DNA from: Alphaproteobacteria bacterium
Lineage (GTDB): Bacteria > Pseudomonadota > Alphaproteobacteria > Micavibrionales > CSBR16-224
DNA: 30,369 bases
Direction: 5' to 3'
Assembly: GCA_007116755.1 (NCBI GenBank)
Contig: SKHU01000053.1
Span: 1 to 30,369 of the forward strand
Made by a program: the position numbers and the translations under genes. The notes under the pieces are model-generated. The model saw nothing but the letters and a program-made list of their open reading frames with translations. It searched no databases and had not been told where the DNA came from. The stretch's first letter is position 1. Every line of letters begins with the position of its first letter. Below are positions 1 through 17,665 of this stretch, in pieces.

Positions 1-1971
1 AAGACCAATTTTACGCTCTGGCCCTGGCAGGCCGAACGCTTTCATCATCGGACGCGACAGCCAAGGATCATGGCCGGGATCGGGCGGCCATGTACCTTCG
101 TTCAGCCCGCCGAGAATGACCAGATCGGCACTGTAAAGCCGCGCCTCCATCTGGCCGAGAATTGCCAGCCGTGGATGCAGGCTGTAGCGCGGACGCACAA
201 CGGCGGTTTTCATCAGATTTTGCAGCAGTGACATATATTGCGTGACCCTCAGATCAGGGACATCACCGGCAAAATCGCTAATGTCCTGAAAAAAACGTGC
301 CGCCGCTTCCCCGTCATCGCCGCGCCAAAGGCGCTCCGCCCCCGCCTTTTCCGGCGTTGCGGCCAGCGTTTCGGCTGCCGCAAGATGCGCAGCAATCCAT
401 GACGGCAAAGGCTGCGTGTCGCCGCATACGCATAAATCACGGAAAGGTGCAAGCGCCTCCGTCACGGATGTCCAGCCGCGCAATGCGGCTTCTCCCGCTT
501 CCGGATTCTGCACCTTTATTTTTTCAAAAGCGGCAGGGATTTCAGCGGGCGTGACGCTGCGCAGCGTCCTGTCCAGCATGTTCTGCCATATTCTCATTTC
601 TTCGGGCTGCATAGCGGCTGTTGCAAGCGGATGGCGCAGGCAGGACAGAAGCGCGACGGGGCTGTTCATATCCCGCGCCGCATCGGCAGCCAGCAAAAGA
701 AATCGTCCTGCATCCGTTTCAGGCAGCGCCCGCCCCGCAGAATCGTCGCAGGTAATATCCCAACGGCGCAAACAGGCCTGCACGCGCGCCGAGAGATTGC
801 GGTCTGGCGTGACAAGAACGGCGGTTTTGCCCGGTGTTTCCAATGCACCGCGCATGGCCAGCGCAATCACAAAGGCTTCGTCCTGCGCGGTTTCGCAATC
901 GATTTTGCGCAAATTTTTCAGTGCGGTTTCCTTGATAATATCGCTGTTTTTTAGACGGCGCCAGCCATCGCTGGTCACGGCCGGACGCATGGCCTCGCTG
1001 ATAAAAGCCGCGACAGACGTTTCCGCCTCTGCACTTGGCCAGGGCGCGACATCACGGCGCTGCACCTCCAGATGTTCCAGCAGCAGTTTCAGATAAAATT
1101 GCGGATGGTCGTCGGCAATATGCGGCCAGTCCTCTTCTTCCGCCAGAACATCCAGCCCCGGCAAGACAAGCATGGCCTCCGGCAGATCGACAGCGGCCTT
1201 GATCAGGTCGCGCACGGCGGGAACAGAGCCGGTAATCCCCGCAACGACCAGTTTCTGGCGCGGCGGCTGCTTTTGCCAGAGACGCGTTTGCGCTTCCAGC
1301 AGACGGTTGCGGCGCTCGGCGGGATCAATCATACCAAGCTCGGCCAGAATATGAGGCCAGTGCTGCGTGACAATCGCAAGAAAATCCAGCGTCAATTGCC
1401 AGTGCGCGGCAAATTTTTCTTCTGTGACAAGTGTTTGCAACCTGTCAAAACCGCAGCGCTCCGTTTGCACCTCATCCAGAAATTTGCTGAGCTCCGCCGC
1501 AAGAGACAGTGCCTGTTCGTAAGAACCGGCGGCAGATGCGTCTTTTTTCGCCGCAGCATAAATGATACGTGCCAAAAGAATTTGGCGGTGCAGCGGCGTA
1601 ATCGCCGGCCGAACATCAAAAATATTTTTTGCCTCCGCTTCGCCGCCTTCGCCGTCATGTTCTGCCAGAGTTGCGGAAAGCAAAATCTCCAGCGCATCAT
1701 CATCGACATCACCGACAGATTGCATACGCGGCAGCAGCAGCGGTGCGCCGTCCGTCAGGCGCAAAAACGCCTCGCGCAGACTGCGGCAGGCGCGGCGACC
1801 GGGCAGCAGCACCAGATATTCGGTCAGGTGCAACGGATTGCCGTCCGCCCAGCCCAGCATGGTCTCCGCAAGCCTGTCCACAAAAGAGACACCGGGCGGA
1901 ATATTAAAGACGGGCGGCGCGCCTTTGTTCCGCTGTCCGGCAATCAGATCGTGAAAAGACGGTGTTGTCAT
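1..1971 (-). CDS. addB: Double-strand break repair protein AddB (5' part; runs off the left edge)
   Basis: Not in the ORF track because no stop lies in the window. Manual translation from ATG at 1971 gives MTTPSFHDLIAGQRNKGAPPVFNIPPGVSFVDRLA...LLPGRRACRSLREAFLRL...LLLPRMQSVGDVDDD. Positions 60->1 read LSRPMMKAFGLPGPERKIGL in the same frame. Both are typical alphaproteobacterial AddB segments. ATGA overlap with the upstream gene. Confidence 0.93.
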   Translation of the reverse strand, partial: MTTPSFHDLIAGQRNKGAPPVFNIPPGVSFVDRLAETMLGWADGNPLHLTEYLVLLPGRRACRSLREAFLRLTDGAPLLLPRMQSVGDVDDDALEILLSATLAEHDGEGGEAEAKNIFDVRPAITPLHRQILLARIIYAAAKKDASAAGSYEQALSLAAELSKFLDEVQTERCGFDRLQTLVTEEKFAAHWQLTLDFLAIVTQHWPHILAELGMIDPAERRNRLLEAQTRLWQKQPPRQKLVVAGITGSVPAVRDLIKAAVDLPEAMLVLPGLDVLAEEEDWPHIADDHPQFYLKLLLEHLEVQRRDVAPWPSAEAETSVAAFISEAMRPAVTSDGWRRLKNSDIIKETALKNLRKIDCETAQDEAFVIALAMRGALETPGKTAVLVTPDRNLSARVQACLRRWDITCDDSAGRALPETDAGRFLLLAADAARDMNSPVALLSCLRHPLATAAMQPEEMRIWQNMLDRTLRSVTPAEIPAAFEKIKVQNPEAGEAALRGWTSVTEALAPFRDLCVCGDTQPLPSWIAAHLAAAETLAATPEKAGAERLWRGDDGEAAARFFQDISDFAGDVPDLRVTQYMSLLQNLMKTAVVRPRYSLHPRLAILGQMEARLYSADLVILGGLNEGTWPPDPGHDPWLSRPMMKAFGLPGPERKIGL

Positions 1972-2708
1972 TGCGCCAGACTCTGCTGTTCCGGCAGTCT
2001 GCGATATGCGGCATCAATCTGTGCGAGATCCTCCGGCGTTCCGGCATGGTGCCACGCGCCCTGATGCACAAAACCGTAAAGCCGCCCTGCTGCTTCGGCT
2101 TTATGGAACAAATCGAGAAAAGAGAATGCGCCGTCCGGCACATCGTCGAACAGATGCGGCGCAACGATGCGGGGACCGGAAAACACGTATTCACCGCCGC
2201 TGCGGTGATGTATTTTCCCATCCGCATCCATATCATAATCTCCTTTTAAACCGCTGGAATCCGGCAGTTTTATACGCGGATACAGCATCAGGAGGAGATC
2301 GGCCTGTGCGGAATTCCAGCTTTCGGCCAAACCGTCCAAAGCCGGGACGCGCCCCGGAAAATCCTGCCAGATTACATCGCCGTTCAGAACATAAAAAGGC
2401 TGGTTATCAATGAATTGCATCGCGTTCTTCGTGCCGCCGCCTGTCTCCAGTATGTCCGGTTCGTAAACGGTCGTGATCTGCAAATCCGTGCGTTTTGCGC
2501 AATGTTCCGCAATCTGTTCGGCCAGATAATGCATATTGACAACGGCGTGTTTTACCCCTGCTGCAACAAGCGCGTCAAAAATGCGGTCAAGAATACTGCG
2601 TCCGCCGACCTCCAAAAGCGGTTTCGGACGATTTTCGGTCAAAGGCATCATGCGGCGGCCAAACCCTGCTGCCAGCACCACAGCCTGTTGCGGTTTTTCT
2701 GCCGTCAT
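1968..2708 (-). CDS. murU: Nucleotidyltransferase family protein, MurNAc-alpha-1-P uridylyltransferase (MurU-like)
   Basis: AVVLAAGFGRRMMPLTENRPKPLLEVGG signature, LETGGG, W-H-x-GTPEDL-type C-terminus (WHHAGTPEDL). Canonical position between tsaE and addB. Confidence 0.85.
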   Translation of the reverse strand: MTAEKPQQAVVLAAGFGRRMMPLTENRPKPLLEVGGRSILDRIFDALVAAGVKHAVVNMHYLAEQIAEHCAKRTDLQITTVYEPDILETGGGTKNAMQFIDNQPFYVLNGDVIWQDFPGRVPALDGLAESWNSAQADLLLMLYPRIKLPDSSGLKGDYDMDADGKIHHRSGGEYVFSGPRIVAPHLFDDVPDGAFSFLDLFHKAEAAGRLYGFVHQGAWHHAGTPEDLAQIDAAYRRLPEQQSLAQ

Positions 2709-3199
2709 CCTGCCCCGTCCCCGCTCTTGCCGTTAATTTCGCATCTTTCCGTCATTGCATCACCGCCCGAATAAACAAATATATCTCTTAAATCAGTATC
2801 TTGACTGGAAAACTTAAACTGAATTTTTAAAAAGTTATCCGGCATATATGCGCCAAGACGCTCCGGCCATTCTATCAGGGAAACAGCCGAGGTTAAAGCC
2901 TCATCCCAGCCGATTTCCAGCATTTCATCGGCATCTTCCAGCCGGTAGAGGTCAAAATGCCAGACCTCCCCCTTCGGCGTTTCATATTGCTGCACCAGTG
3001 TAAATGTCGGGCTGGGAACTTCCATCTCGGGATTTTGCGCAAGATGCCGCAGAAAAACACGGGCAAACGCCGTTTTCCCCGCGCCCAGATCGCCCTCGAG
3101 CAGGACAACGTCACCTTTTTGCACGATACCTGCCAGATTTTCAGCAATATACTGCAAATCCGCAAGCGTCTGGTTTTCGTAAATATATATATTTTTCAT
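2705..3199 (-). CDS. tsaE: tRNA threonylcarbamoyladenosine biosynthesis ATPase TsaE
   Basis: LLEGDLGAGKTAFAR (Walker A), EVPSPTFTLVQQY, HFDLYRL, LIEWPERL. Start reassigned to ATG at 3199 (MKNIYIYE); the ORF-track extension to 3700 is antisense to the neighbouring gene. ATGA overlap with murU. Confidence 0.95.
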   Translation of the reverse strand: MKNIYIYENQTLADLQYIAENLAGIVQKGDVVLLEGDLGAGKTAFARVFLRHLAQNPEMEVPSPTFTLVQQYETPKGEVWHFDLYRLEDADEMLEIGWDEALTSAVSLIEWPERLGAYMPDNFLKIQFKFSSQDTDLRDIFVYSGGDAMTERCEINGKSGDGAG

Positions 3200-3274
3200 A
3201 TTGATTTTACCCGCTCTGTCTGCTACACTGGCCGCGCAACCGGTACTATAGCGCAGAGATGTGAAAACGAAAAT

Positions 3275-3703
3275 ATGAATTGGCTGAAAGATATTTTTAA
3301 CTGCAACAGTTTCCCGCGGACGATTTCCGCCCTGCCCTCTGAAGGCCCCGGCTATGAGGTGCGCAATCTGTGTGGAAGAGATGTGACCGATTATAACTAT
3401 GACGACTATCGTTACCAGCTTTACGCGCGACGTAGCAAAGGGCGGGAATACGATATTTTTGTCAAATTTAATAACGGCAGTTTTGACAGTGGTCGCGCAA
3501 TGCTCCGTTGCGGCGTAGCACTGAATGACGCAATCGGGATTATCCGCGGATATGACGACAAGGTAACCGCAAAACGTTTGGGTAATTTGCCAAAACAGGA
3601 TCACGCAGCCTATGCTAAACGGTTTATCGATCCGAAACGCGGGCGCAACAACGTACGCCGCGTACAAAACCGCCTGACGATTGCCAACCCTTACGGGCAT
3701 TGA
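3275..3703 (+). CDS. Hypothetical protein, paralog 1 of 4-gene tandem family (142 aa)
   Basis: Start reassigned to ATG 3275 (MNWLKDIFNCNSFPRTISALP) because it aligns with the N-termini of the other three. Ends RGRNNVRRVQNRLTIANPYGH. Confidence 0.85.
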   Translation: MNWLKDIFNCNSFPRTISALPSEGPGYEVRNLCGRDVTDYNYDDYRYQLYARRSKGREYDIFVKFNNGSFDSGRAMLRCGVALNDAIGIIRGYDDKVTAKRLGNLPKQDHAAYAKRFIDPKRGRNNVRRVQNRLTIANPYGH

Positions 3704-3726
3704 AAATTTAAAAACACAGGAAATTG

Positions 3727-4152
3727 ATGTTTGATTTTATAAAAGACGCCTTCAACTGCAACGCCTATCCGCGCCGCATTACCTCTTTGCCAGAAACGCG
3801 CCGTGGGGAGGCTATTCAAGCGGAAACCGGCGCATTTTTACGCTGGAGCAGTCTGGATTATGAAATGCAGTTTTATGCGTCACGCAATGATGACCGTAGC
3901 TATGATATCAAATGTTTTTTTCATTCCACCGGACAGGATGCGCGCAGCACATTACTGCAAAAAAGCGTTCCGCTGGACAAGGCGATTACGATTATCCGCG
4001 GCTATGACGACCGGGCAACCAAAGCGCAAATGGAGCAAAACAAATATGTCGATTTCAGCCTGCGCCGTGAAAAAATCGACAAATTGCGTAAGCGCCACAA
4101 TGTGCGTCGTGTGCAAAGCCGTTTGACGCAATCCAACCCGATGCGGCATTGA
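3727..4152 (+). CDS. Hypothetical protein, paralog 2 of 4 (141 aa)
   Basis: MFDFIKDAFNCNAYPRRITSLP...RKRHNVRRVQSRLTQSNPMRH. AGGA RBS 5 nt before ATG 3727 (the track starts at TTG 3724). Confidence 0.85.
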   Translation: MFDFIKDAFNCNAYPRRITSLPETRRGEAIQAETGAFLRWSSLDYEMQFYASRNDDRSYDIKCFFHSTGQDARSTLLQKSVPLDKAITIIRGYDDRATKAQMEQNKYVDFSLRREKIDKLRKRHNVRRVQSRLTQSNPMRH

Positions 4153-4183
4153 TCATCGGAAGGGGAGAGAGAGAAATATTCAA

Positions 4184-4645
4184 ATGCTGAAAAATTTTTT
4201 TAAAGACATTTTCAATACGAATGCCTTTCCGCGCACTATTGCCGCGTTGCCGGAGCGCTATCACAGTGTTGCCGAAGTCAATGAGCGCGCAGGGAAGAAG
4301 CATTTTGTCAACTGGTACGGGCTGGACAGATATGACTGCCGCTTTTATGCCCGGCGCTGTAAGGACAATAAATACGAAATCCGGTTTTCCTGCGAATCCA
4401 TGGAGAACGTGATGGGGGAAAGCTATTACCACAAAAGAGTACTGCGCCTGATGAAAAATATCCCCTTAAGCGATGCCATCCGCATTATCCAGCAATTTGA
4501 CGAGGAGGCGCTTGAAATCAACCGCAAGCAACTCGAAACTCTGCCGGAGAAAAAAAGGGAAAAGAAAATCGAAAGGAAACGCGGGCGCAACAATGTCCGC
4601 CGCGCACAGAAACGTCTGACGGCCGCCAATCCGTACAGGCATTAA
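4184..4645 (+). CDS. Hypothetical protein, paralog 3 of 4 (153 aa)
   Basis: MLKNFFKDIFNTNAFPRTIAALP...RGRNNVRRAQKRLTAANPYRH. Purine-rich RBS region upstream. Confidence 0.85.
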   Translation: MLKNFFKDIFNTNAFPRTIAALPERYHSVAEVNERAGKKHFVNWYGLDRYDCRFYARRCKDNKYEIRFSCESMENVMGESYYHKRVLRLMKNIPLSDAIRIIQQFDEEALEINRKQLETLPEKKREKKIERKRGRNNVRRAQKRLTAANPYRH

Positions 4646-4676
4646 CTTATAAAAAAAGCAGCAAAGGGGAAGATAA

Positions 4677-5078
4677 ATGCTGAAATACTTGAAGAACCTG
4701 TTTAACAACAGCGCCTATCCGCGAAAGATCACCGCGCTGCCGGATTACAAAAACGGCCGCGCATTAAACAAACAATTCGGGCAGCGTGTTGCCGTCTATG
4801 AAAACGAACATTACCGCTGTCAGTATTACGCCAAACGCACAGGCAATAACAGCTATGATCTGCGGCTATCCATCAGTGCGGTTTATCTGGCCGGATACGG
4901 AACGACCGTTACAGACAGATCGACATTGCAGTTGAAAAGCAATGTCACGCTGAATGACGCGCTTGCCTTTGTTAAAAAACAGGATGCACGGGCGGAGAAA
5001 AATCGGCCGAATGACGGAAAATATCGTCCGCGCAACAATGTCCGCCGCGTCGAGGCACGTCTGCCGCCCCGCCACTAG
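4677..5078 (+). CDS. Hypothetical protein, paralog 4 of 4 (133 aa)
   Basis: MLKYLKNLFNNSAYPRKITALP...RPRNNVRRVEARLPPRH. AAGGGGA RBS upstream. Confidence 0.85.
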   Translation: MLKYLKNLFNNSAYPRKITALPDYKNGRALNKQFGQRVAVYENEHYRCQYYAKRTGNNSYDLRLSISAVYLAGYGTTVTDRSTLQLKSNVTLNDALAFVKKQDARAEKNRPNDGKYRPRNNVRRVEARLPPRH

Positions 5079-5090
5079 AATTGCAGAACA

Positions 5091-5136
5091 AAACATCCCG
5101 GAATGGTAGAGGAGATTTTTGCTGTTCCGGATTTTT
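5091..5136 (+). terminator. Putative intrinsic terminator closing the paralog array
   Basis: ATCC(C)GGAATGGTAGAGG-AGA-TTTTTGCTGTTCCGGAT forms a long helix with several G-U pairs on the + strand, followed by TTTTT, starting about 12 nt after the paralog-4 stop. Confidence 0.45.
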
Positions 5137-5187
5137 CTATGCCTCCCCCAAAAAATATATATTTATGAATCTGATAATTAGTCTGTT

Positions 5188-5202
5188 TGGCACGGAATTT
5201 GC
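5188..5202 (+). promoter_or_regulatory. Sigma54 (RpoN) -24/-12 promoter of the fliK-flgD-flgE operon
   Basis: TGGCACGGAATTTGC matches TGGCAC-N5-TTGC, with GG (5189-90) and GC (5201-02) 12 nt apart, 75 nt upstream of fliK. Hook genes are sigma54-dependent in Caulobacter-type hierarchies. Confidence 0.85.
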
Positions 5203-5276
5203 GTTTTATTTCCGTGCGGAGAGATTTTCTTACCCTCTTCGCGGAAAACTGAGAATATTTGAAGGAAGAAACATAA

Positions 5277-6641
5277 ATGATACCGGCAGATCACATGGCT
5301 GCGACTTTCTTTCCGGCGCAAAAATCAGGATCGCCCGCTCAGGCCGGAGCGCCCGGGAAAGAGCGCGCTGCGCCATCCGGTAACGGTTTGCCGGAATTTA
5401 TCGAGAGTCTGATTGAAAATCTGCAAACGGAGATCAATGTCGACAGCCCTTCCTCTCCTGCACCTGTTCCACAAAATTTAAAAGACAATCTTGACCTGCT
5501 GCACAAATTGCTGCGGGAAAATTTTGCCGGAGAATTGCCCGAGGAATATGCGGAGGGGGAATTTGATCGCGAGGCTTTGCTGAATGCATTGCTGGGAGCT
5601 TCCGGAATGAAGCTTGAGAATACGGGCACAGATGCAGATACGAAACCATCGCCCAAACCGGGGACGTACGGACAATTGAACGCTGTTCTTGCACAATTGC
5701 TTGCCCAAATGCAGACAGCCCCGCAGCAGCAGCCTTCTCCCGTCAGCACGGATGTGTCTGGGCAAAATCTGCCCCCTGCGTCGCAATCTCCTGCATTTTC
5801 GGCATTTCAGGCATTGGCGGCGGATGCCGGTCTTGATGCGGAATTGGCGGAGAAAATACCGCACACAGTCCCGGGGCAGAAAACAAAGGCGCAAATATCG
5901 GCGCAAACACAGTCTCAACCGGCGCAAATACTGCAACAGCAACCCTCGCCCGCGCCTCAGGCGCAAAATACGGGAAGCGGCCAGCAAATGGTGCAGCACA
6001 CCCCTGCCCCGCCGCCTCCGGCGCTGAATTTTGAGGGCAGTTTTTTTAGCGGTGAGGGTTTTAACGGAGATTTCCATCAACACAATGCCGGACAATACAC
6101 AATCGACGGGCAGAGCGGTGCGCAGCATGGTGTAAAAACCGGACAAAACCCCGCGCTTTCCACAATGGTTGCGGCGAAGGCCGCGGGAAGCTTTCAATCT
6201 CCCGCCAGTCACAGAATTATGCTGAATATCCAGCGCGGTGCGTCCGAGCATATCCGGCAAATGACATTGCATCTGGAGCCTGCCCTTATGGGGCGCGTGG
6301 CGGTCACAATGAATTTCGGCAAAAACGGCTTGATGAAGGCGCATCTTTTGGTCGAAAAGCCCGACACCTACAACTTGCTGCAAAAAGATGCCCAGGCTTT
6401 GGAGAAAGCTTTGAAAGAGGCGGGACTGGATCTGGAAGATAACGCGCTCAGCTTTGATCTCGCCGCAGGAGATAATCCGTTCGAGCAGGCGGAAAACGAA
6501 AAAGAAGGCGGGAAAGATTTTCTGTTGCATCTGCCCGCGGAAGACGGCGCGGATGATCTGCTCGACCCGCTTCTGGCTGCCCAGCAATCGGCCAATGAAA
6601 ACGGTTATATTTTAAGAGATAAGGTGAATATCCTCATATAA
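5277..6641 (+). CDS. fliK: Flagellar hook-length control protein FliK
   Basis: Q/P/A-rich low-complexity N-terminal region, then C-terminal domain MTLHLEPALMGRVAVTM...LLVEKPDTYNLLQKDAQALEKALKEAGL. Directly upstream of flgD-flgE. Confidence 0.9.
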   Translation: MIPADHMAATFFPAQKSGSPAQAGAPGKERAAPSGNGLPEFIESLIENLQTEINVDSPSSPAPVPQNLKDNLDLLHKLLRENFAGELPEEYAEGEFDREALLNALLGASGMKLENTGTDADTKPSPKPGTYGQLNAVLAQLLAQMQTAPQQQPSPVSTDVSGQNLPPASQSPAFSAFQALAADAGLDAELAEKIPHTVPGQKTKAQISAQTQSQPAQILQQQPSPAPQAQNTGSGQQMVQHTPAPPPPALNFEGSFFSGEGFNGDFHQHNAGQYTIDGQSGAQHGVKTGQNPALSTMVAAKAAGSFQSPASHRIMLNIQRGASEHIRQMTLHLEPALMGRVAVTMNFGKNGLMKAHLLVEKPDTYNLLQKDAQALEKALKEAGLDLEDNALSFDLAAGDNPFEQAENEKEGGKDFLLHLPAEDGADDLLDPLLAAQQSANENGYILRDKVNILI

Positions 6642-16501: not shown

Positions 16502-17665
16502 TCAAGGCTTTATTTGACGTAGCGAATGCTTCTTTTTCGTAGGTGAAGAGGTTGATGTCGCAAGCGCAGGTGTTTCAAAGCGCGTCAGATCGTAGGCGCT
16601 GAAAAAGCAGCGGTCACCCATTGCGGTAAGCGCAGGTGCTTCAAAACGCGTCAGGGCATCAGCGCTGAAAAGGCAGCATTCGCCCATTTCCGTGAGCGCA
16701 GGAAGATAAAGGGTTTTGATGCGTGATTTTTCAGCACCAATCAGGAGTTCATCGCCCAGATACAGGTTACCGCCTTTGACTGTCAATGCACGGTTTCCCC
16801 CGTAGCACCGGTTAAAATCATCCGCAAAGCTGTCGTTGTTTTCAGGATCGATTTTCTTCAAGGTCTTGGTTTTATTGTCAAACAGGAATCCCTCAAACAG
16901 GGCATCACCGGCGACTTTGTCGACGGTGTAGACATGGGCATTTTCAGCCCATGCCTGATCGCCGTAATATATGTTGTTATCCTCTTTATAATATTTGAAT
17001 ATCCGGTTTCCCATTAACACAAATCCCTCGGGCAAAGAAGATTTGGTGGCAGAGAATTCAACGTTGAAATAGTCTTTGAGTGCCGCCGAAAGCCCGTCAA
17101 TAATATTGTCCGGATTGCTATCGAACGTGTTATCACAACCGGAAACCGCATGGTTATAACGGTTTTTGATGCTGATAAACCCGCCTTCTTTCCACATCTG
17201 GATGGAAATCACCGAAGTGCCGTATTCATCCTGACGTTCCTCTTTTCCTTTGAAATCTTCGCGTTTGATTTGATCCACATCTTTTTTGACGGCATGGACA
17301 ATGTGATAGTTTTTGTAACGCGCATGGTCATTAAAGGTGCACAGCAGCTCGCCGCGTGCAAAATAGGGCTTGATACTGTTTTGTTTTTCCAGAGCATCGG
17401 CGTAAAAGGCTTTGTATCCGGCCTGATCCAGCAGAACAAACGGGTCTGACGGTGCAGGCGCAGGCGTATCATCGTTGGAGGCCAGCAGAGTCATAAGATA
17501 AGGCAGCAACGGTTCTGCATCCTGCCCTGCATGGCGAAGAATAACGTCAATATCGGGAATCTCCAGAATTCCGTTGTGGAAATTCCTGATTGTCTGCGCA
17601 AATTTTTCGCCGTTTTGCTTTTTCAGCGTCTTGTACATGGAAGCACCCGCCGTGTTTACCCTCAT
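16502..17665 (-). CDS. Hypothetical protein: uncharacterised N-terminal domain plus short 22-aa leucine-rich repeat array
   Basis: 387-aa ORF (alternative start ATG 17638, MYKTLKK). The C-terminus has IKTLYLPALTEMGECCLFSADA / LTRFEAPALTAMGDRCFFSAYD / LTRFETPALA. No signal peptide. Confidence 0.8.
   Translation of the reverse strand: MRVNTAGASMYKTLKKQNGEKFAQTIRNFHNGILEIPDIDVILRHAGQDAEPLLPYLMTLLASNDDTPAPAPSDPFVLLDQAGYKAFYADALEKQNSIKPYFARGELLCTFNDHARYKNYHIVHAVKKDVDQIKREDFKGKEERQDEYGTSVISIQMWKEGGFISIKNRYNHAVSGCDNTFDSNPDNIIDGLSAALKDYFNVEFSATKSSLPEGFVLMGNRIFKYYKEDNNIYYGDQAWAENAHVYTVDKVAGDALFEGFLFDNKTKTLKKIDPENNDSFADDFNRCYGGNRALTVKGGNLYLGDELLIGAEKSRIKTLYLPALTEMGECCLFSADALTRFEAPALTAMGDRCFFSAYDLTRFETPALATSTSSPTKKKHSLRQIKP
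16563..16702 (-). repeat. 66-bp intragenic tandem repeat (2 full units plus a partial third) encoding LRR units
   Basis: AGCGCAGG anchors at 16563, 16629 and 16695. Hand alignment of the two full units gives 52/66 identical. Confidence 0.9.

Follow-up and report, generated by a model that had tools for sequence, protein, structure and literature searches.

A tandem array of four genes in a contig from the Micavibrionales (Alphaproteobacteria; assembly GCA_007116755.1, contig SKHU01000053.1), which we analyzed over its whole length of 30,369 nucleotides and refer to as the window, is made up of four old, non-redundant paralogs under purifying selection that belong to an undescribed orphan protein family. 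For the products of this array, located at positions 3275 to 5078, we tentatively favor an explanation that we consider plausible rather than probable, namely that they constitute a set of nucleic-acid-binding proteins. The proposal is based on a predicted domain shape weakly resembling the WGR domain, and we count in its favor the charge and solubility of the proteins, the selection acting on the genes, their non-redundancy, their native composition and a hint of expression. The alternatives that we weigh against it are export as effectors, a role as protein-binding adaptors, a stand-alone immunity or specificity system and an accessory function in the flagellum.

Sequence, age and selection of the array genes

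The array comprises four forward-strand open reading frames (ORFs), with paralog 1 (type 1; 3275..3703; 142 aa, isoelectric point 9.7), identified as an ORF together with its translation, followed by paralog 2 (type 2; 3727..4152; 141 aa, isoelectric point 9.8), which has an alternative TTG start at 3724, paralog 3 (type 3; 4184..4645; 153 aa, isoelectric point 10.0), in which the inter-strand loop is longer, and paralog 4 (type 4; 4677..5078; 133 aa, isoelectric point 10.2), which lacks the second C-terminal helix segment. The successive spacers measure 23, 31 and 31 nt, and purine-rich stretches resembling ribosome-binding sites (AGGAAA; GGAAGGGGAGAGAGAG; AAAGGGGAAG) lie upstream of paralogs 2-4. 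A preliminary description of this DNA, made from the sequence alone, had reported four co-oriented ORFs of 133-153 aa, 23-31 nt apart and with such stretches before the last three, as well as three shared sequence blocks and a terminal His in every protein; the ORF layout is confirmed from the sequence, and the blocks and the His are all present in our alignment. Its characterization of the proteins as small and basic is equally borne out by isoelectric points of 9.7-10.2 and by the final 40 residues, which carry a net charge of +7 to +12 and account for most of the charge of each protein. The four proteins are hydrophilic, with grand averages of hydropathy between -0.8 and -1.0, and no hydrophobic segment is found in any of them.

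The paralogs are 32-40% identical to each other (pairwise BLASTP, E between 1e-15 and 1e-27 for a search space of one proteome), and their full-length alignment contains 29 invariant columns, with a mean column identity of 56%. Across 24 aligned members of the family the invariant residues are F8, P14, A51, R53, Y59 and D94. The arginine-rich tail carries the motif R-x-R-N-N-V-R-R-V-Q-x-R-L, and the C-terminal end reads N-P-x-x-His. Identity at third codon positions amounts to only 35-41%, from which we conclude that the duplications are old and reject recent gene conversion among the paralogs. This agrees with the earlier claim, drawn from the use of different synonymous codons in the C-terminal block, of old duplications maintained by selection on the protein; the codon differences are indeed present. 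The GC content at third codon positions (0.54-0.62) is like that of neighboring genes, so that the array is native in composition and its recent horizontal transfer is rejected; the dip in total GC over the array stems from amino-acid composition.

Selection was quantified as the ratio of nonsynonymous to synonymous substitution rates (dN/dS) by the Nei-Gojobori method, comparing the genes of the window with those of a close strain (EA357, GCA_007693615.1, hereafter L057; 96-99% identical). The array genes yield dN/dS values of 0.23 (paralog 1, dS 0.41), 0.07 (paralog 2, dS 0.08), 0.21 (paralog 3, dS 0.08) and 0.05 (paralog 4, dS 0.13), next to 0.11 for tsaE (dS 0.10) and 0.13 for murU (dS 0.12), and are thus under the same housekeeping-like purifying selection as these two neighbors. 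Between species dS is saturated and dN/dS does not exceed 0.35. Protein identity to L057 is 96-99% for three of the four genes and only 83% for paralog 1, but the dS of paralog 1 is raised as well, about four-fold above the 0.08-0.13 seen elsewhere at the locus, which suggests allele replacement by recombination rather than positive selection. A lake-water run contains an equal-length, strongly diverged block of 100 nt inside paralog 1 (window 3346-3447), an observation that suggests allele exchange.

These data bear directly on the interpretation put forward in the preliminary description, according to which a fixed scaffold with a variable recognition segment would make the array a stand-alone set of diversified effector, immunity or specificity modules. 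Tandem paralogs in which conserved blocks alternate with segments that vary in length, and the sharp difference in paralog 1 between close strains, are what such a system would present. The segments between the blocks do vary in length, but the variable middle is no hypervariable segment and resolves into an inter-strand loop, longer in types 3 and 4, and a helix that paralog 4 lacks, that is, one loop and one helix of a single predicted domain. The contrast anticipated there between conserved motifs and diversifying intervening segments finds no counterpart at the gene level, since dN/dS against L057 lies at 0.05-0.23 with no sign of diversifying selection; the divergence of paralog 1 carries its high dS and hence speaks for recombination rather than for diversification; and the types are orthologous by position, with their order kept across species. 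No toxin or defense gene lies near the array, and a search with PADLOC returned one chance-level match (E 0.024). With neither a PADLOC match nor an adjacent toxin, an immunity array appears very improbable and the modular interpretation is not upheld, although the proteins may still be effectors, a part of the earlier reading that we take up below.

Distribution of the family

The four paralogs gave only chance-level matches in Pfam, NCBIfam, PHROGs and PADLOC, a profile search of sequences in the Protein Data Bank (PDB) yielded no match at E <= 10, and a feature search of the ESM Atlas produced no usable match. An Rfam scan of positions 2600-5400 returned a single chance match to a small nucleolar RNA. 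Searching 5.8 billion proteins with a word index recovered 14 members of the family. An exhaustive search with a hidden Markov model (HMM), run against 1.84 billion cluster representatives, recovered 16, of which nine lie below 1e-30; Micavibrio-like genomes and metagenomes are the source of all 16. The only annotation that any member carries is 'hypothetical protein', from Micavibrio sp. and Pseudomonadota metagenome-assembled genomes, and the runs holding the DNA are soda-lake, lake and freshwater metagenomes. Among 201 sampled genomes of the same order, five contain the family, all of them in two genera (g1 and g4) of one taxonomic family; the sampled genomes of three further genera of that taxonomic family yielded no member. 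The family is therefore an orphan with an extremely narrow distribution, confined to a few Micavibrio-like genera. The preliminary description had recognized no family and no toxin, transposase or enzyme partner in the window, and had proposed an undescribed system; the lack of a confident match to any characterized family and the narrow range of the 16 representatives lend support to an undescribed family, and the absence of a toxin, transposase or enzyme partner is also borne out.

Within the genome of the window (G000, an assembly 88% complete), a profile scan ranks paralog 1 as the best family member (E 6e-64) and detects six copies in total, four in the array and two dispersed (L005/L006), both at contig ends. 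One of the dispersed copies (G000:C86:1-411, reverse strand) groups with type 4 in the tree with support of 100/99, and the other (G000:C263:9-443, forward strand) groups with type 3. The neighbor of one is an unannotated 229-aa gene and that of the other an ABC-F-like ATPase, and the contig breaks at both copies may hide further ones.

Predicted fold and putative nucleic-acid binding

The fold search called for in the preliminary description identified the WGR domain as the most recurrent structural match, across four libraries and two models, with no library giving a strong one. The AlphaFold2 model of full-length paralog 1 (predicted local distance difference test, pLDDT, 85; predicted template modelling score, pTM, 0.77) starts with a hairpin and a short helix, continues with three antiparallel strands, all of them long, and ends in one long helix followed by two more, with low confidence at residues 1-10 and 139-142 and a tail helix predicted at 127-137; a domain-only model of paralog 2 (residues 12-104) reached a pLDDT of 93.6 and a pTM of 0.82. 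Foldseek matched the WGR domain of PARP2 in the PDB with probability 0.8-0.9 and E of about 0.5, several entries labeled 'WGR domain-containing' appeared among the structural matches in the AlphaFold Database clusters, and WGR accounted for 4 of 10 rows in the ESM Atlas (template modelling score, TM, by query 0.55-0.57; root-mean-square deviation 2.8-2.9).

From these models we infer a WGR-like arrangement, membership in WGR itself not being established. The predicted likeness to WGR (PF05406; PARP1/2/3 and stand-alone bacterial and phage WGR proteins) extends to a size of about 80-100 residues and to a strand-strand-strand-helix core with an N-terminal hairpin, and many bacterial WGR proteins are also small and stand-alone, of about 100-150 aa. 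In contrast to WGR, the array family shows no sequence or profile similarity to the domain and no W-G-R motif, adds an arginine-rich two-helix tail and conserved terminal peptides, and forms a fixed four-type tandem array beside tsaE. WGR domains bind DNA ends and nicks. The Arg/Asn-dense stretch R-N-N-V-R-R-V-Q-x-R-L, short and predicted to be helical, can likewise be set beside the arginine-rich motif of RNA-binding helices such as those of lambda N and HIV Rev, a likeness that is compositional only.

In the arrangement that we propose, a domain of about 95 residues, with a five-stranded antiparallel sheet packed on helices and WGR as its nearest look-alike, would read a backbone feature of structured DNA or RNA, while the arginine-rich helical tail would supply charge for binding. 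Short, conserved and probably flexible N- and C-terminal peptides would flank domain and tail. The four types may have distinct targets or may form a mixed complex, and they would act either in the cytoplasm of the predator itself or, after export, in the prey.

Several results weigh against a nucleic-acid-binding function or against its structural basis. The structural matches are weak (Z < 6, against 3.9 at rank 50), and in the Atlas unrelated folds attain equal TM. The Pfam profile PF05406 matches none of the paralogs even at E <= 1 (cut-off 22 bits), and a whole-genome scan with it returned a single unrelated match of 11.7 bits on another contig. Alignment with hhalign of the 24-sequence family alignment to 21 bacterial WGR domains gathered from a phylum-wide scan gave a probability of 0.2% and E 0.29, with 22 aligned columns that correspond to a topologically equivalent strand and helix, and WGR homology is thereby rejected on profile grounds. 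The family alignment shows no W-G-R motif in any of its 24 members, and the equivalent position is variable. Restriction to two or three genera is, furthermore, unusual for a core nucleic-acid function, and nucleic-acid binding leaves the strict conservation of the disordered termini unexplained.

Those termini, which are short, conserved and predicted to be flexible, would be accounted for if the proteins were instead protein-binding adaptors or chaperones, for example of a secretion or assembly machine, in which the terminal peptides dock a partner and nucleic acids play no part. Paralog 3 has a weak NCBIfam match to IcmW (NF038222; 14.7 bits, E 0.026), and a TubC-type docking domain is among the fold neighbors in the Atlas (TM 0.60). 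However, the IcmW score lies far under the 100-bit cut-off and is restricted to paralog 3, genome scans gave no match, and structures of IcmS and IcmW are absent from the fold-search results. The isoelectric points near 10 also differ from those of secretion chaperones, which are usually acidic. We therefore deem such a role improbable.

Genomic context and transcription

We compared the array of the window with those of a complete genome of the same genus (CP053449.1, hereafter G026), of L057 and of two g4 genomes, and with a distant three-gene array from lake metagenomes. The only neighbor common to all of them is tsaE (2705..3199 in the window, reverse strand; Pfam TsaE, E 1e-36), which is always divergent from the array. 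We regard tsaE as positional context, a reading of gene order that implies no functional link. In the window the array is surrounded by tsaE, murU and fliK/flgD/flgE, and G026 has the same layout (addB/addA-murU-tsaE, five family genes, fliK-flgD-flgE). At the left end of the window, positions 1-1971 (reverse strand) hold an open-ended ORF of 657 aa without a Pfam match at 1e-5; it is probably addB, and its L057 counterpart carries PDDEXK_1.

The 3' neighbor of the array is fliK in the window and in G026. In L057 a convergent DotI/IcmL-like gene and ndk follow the array in place of fliK-flgD-flgE (L057 6895-8031), and glmS lies downstream of the distant three-gene array. Contigs of relatives in two runs part from the window exactly at 5078, and a synteny breakpoint is seen directly after the array (window 5078-5100). 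In genera that do not have the family, the genes directly divergent from tsaE encode a FAD-dependent reductase and an nfuA-like protein. These comparisons of neighbors across genomes identify the array as a lineage-specific occupant of the tsaE-divergent site, beside a recurrent rearrangement point. In a maximum-likelihood tree, the array genes of G000, G026 and G046 group by their place in the array, so that position and orthologous type coincide; types 2 and 4 form strongly supported clades, and G026 and G046 each have type 1 in duplicate. Copy number per array varies between 3, 4 and 5, with dispersed copies in addition.

The spacing alone of the four genes would predict their co-transcription. 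A candidate sigma-70-like promoter read by eye (TTGATT-17 nt-TACACT, 3201..3229, forward strand) sits in the 75-nt gap between tsaE and paralog 1; it matches 8 of 12 consensus positions, which is sub-threshold for the promoter scanner, and at the corresponding place the distant array L024 has TTGACA-17-TATATT. We infer that the candidate site may serve as the promoter of the array. A terminator-like hairpin with a T-run (5098..5140, forward strand) begins 20 nt past the stop codon of paralog 4 and is weak evidence alone, as terminator-like sites in the region are no more numerous than in shuffled sequence. A predicted sigma-54-type promoter (TGGCAC-N5-TTGC, 5188..5202, forward strand) lies 75 nt before the start of fliK and would serve fliK-flgD-flgE; the motif has a single match in the window against 0.12 expected by chance, and it recurs ahead of fliK in G026. 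This predicted promoter marks the boundary of the transcription unit of the array, and in combination the candidate promoter, the terminator-like hairpin and the sigma-54-type site of fliK suggest that the array is its own operon, apart from the hook operon.

The position of the array, co-oriented with and directly upstream of fliK (5277-6641), flgD and flgE in the window and in G026, might otherwise be taken as a sign that its products are flagellar accessory proteins, such as chaperones, regulators or export substrates of the hook operon. Against this, fliK has its own, conserved sigma-54-type promoter and is separated from the array by the hairpin, the downstream neighbors in L057 (DotI/IcmL-like, ndk) and in the distant array (glmS) are not flagellar, related genera with tsaE lack the family, and the paralogs have no Pfam match to FlbT, FlaF, FliS, FliT or FlgN. 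Synteny and the fliK promoter essentially exclude a flagellar role, to which we assign only a marginal probability.

A freshwater metatranscriptome provides a hint that the array genes are expressed: contigs of a relative that is 95-98% identical cover parts of paralogs 2 and 4, at a depth similar to that of flgE. These are assembler contigs from one run, without strand or transcript-end information. They bear on the expression check suggested in the preliminary description; a second RNA run contained no array sequence.

Basic tails and a possible type IVB export route

The proteins might alternatively be exported effectors, most plausibly handled by a Dot/Icm-type (type IVB) machine for which the basic C-terminus ending in Pro-x-x-His would act as an address tag. 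This explanation, which we rate as doubtful but worth serious attention, overlaps with nucleic-acid binding, as the proteins may bind nucleic acid in the prey. Its starting point is a count over a crude ORF set of G000 (1,968 ORFs), in which tails with a net charge of +4 or more were classed as basic: His is the last residue in 26 of 271 basic tails and in 40 of the other 1697 (odds ratio 4.4, p 1e-7). Paralogy among the tailed proteins inflates this statistic, but after BLAST clustering the basic His tails still fall into about 16 separate groups, of which at least 12, orphan and unrelated by BLAST, follow the order hydrophobic segment, R-R, K-P-K-K-P and K-H. Several of these occur in tandem pairs; examples in G000 are found at C264:27204-28988, C191:224-1691, C265:850-2474 and C194:609-2007, and none of ten tailed orphan proteins tested had a significant Pfam match. 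One family of tailed membrane proteins is distributed like the array family, being present in g1 and g4 and not found in g2 and g3, and in G021 Lys-Tyr takes the place of the terminal His in both families, a co-variation that represents a single event and is suggestive only. The variable copy number of the array and the synteny breakpoint directly after it also accord with export. Organization in tandem orphan arrays is a typical trait of effector repertoires, one that the array shares. The window further encodes, at 16502-17665 (reverse strand), a 387-aa protein with leucine-rich-repeat-like repeats and a basic, Pro-containing tail (...SSPTKKKHSLRQIKP), which is a candidate for the basic-tail class.

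Most of the other His-ended tails, however, follow a hydrophobic segment and may be mere cytoplasmic stop-transfer tails, and selection on the array is as strict as on housekeeping genes. The signals described for Dot/Icm substrates in Legionella and Coxiella consist of a Glu-rich block, small polar residues and a hydrophobic residue near -3. The array tails are strongly positive and have no Glu-rich block, the last 20 residues of types 1-3 containing no Glu, so that a Dot/Icm-type signal of the described kind is absent from the array proteins. They do resemble both the positively charged C-terminal signals of VirB/D4 (type IVA) systems and Dot/Icm C-terminal signals in presenting a conserved, flexible, arginine-rich end on small lineage-specific proteins, but they differ in that the machine here would be of type IVB and the tail, at +7 to +12, ends in His.

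Components of such a machine are present in these bacteria. Six DotI/IcmL-like genes occur in G000 and six such paralogs also in G026, and dotI, dotH and a trbI/dotG-like gene are found throughout the taxonomic family. In G026 a cluster of dotI/icmL, dotH/icmK and a trbI(dotG)-like gene (L074 12271-15586; G026:C1:1564270-1567585) lies amid housekeeping genes and is followed by an unannotated 419-aa gene. Beside a DotI-like gene of the same genome (L069 11412-21053), an integrase-like gene, a gene for a 2,009-aa cadherin/Big_9 repeat protein and a relaxase gene occur together, a grouping that suggests an integrated mobile element. A survey has reported Dot/Icm-type systems in seven marine Micavibrionales (PMC9418006), and the genome paper of the type strain M. 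aeruginosavorus ARL-13 reports no type IV system (PMC3189940). The gene dotH was detected in all 9 relatives tested but not in the incomplete G000, and since relatives that have the array family and relatives that lack it all possess the gene, a phyletic link between the family and type IVB genes is uninformative. No coupling protein of the VirD4/TraG type (PF02534) and no IcmW were found in genome scans, and matches to the TrwB type (PF10412) were marginal, with none in the genus of the window; within this genus, neither a coupling protein nor IcmSW was detected.

Combining this route with nucleic-acid binding, the array proteins would be nucleic-acid-binding effectors injected into prey through a Dot/Icm-type machine and recognized by a lineage-specific, basic, His-terminated tag common to dozens of unrelated orphans of this one genome. 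We judge this combined account unlikely.

Conclusions

Micavibrio-type predators feed while attached to the exterior of their prey, and how they manipulate or drain the prey cell is, to our knowledge, largely unknown. If the array proteins are exported, they would give access to the effectors of a type IVB system in a bacterial predator and to the signal that it recognizes; were the combined account of injected nucleic-acid-binding effectors to hold true, the tag would differ from every type IVB signal described, and its bearers would be the first cargo to be named for a machine of this kind in a bacterium that preys on bacteria. If they bind only the nucleic acids of the predator itself, the array would represent a more modest addition, in the form of a very divergent WGR-like family. 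As a real, conserved and lineage-specific family of small basic proteins, the array offers a concrete and cheap target of four proteins of about 140 residues.

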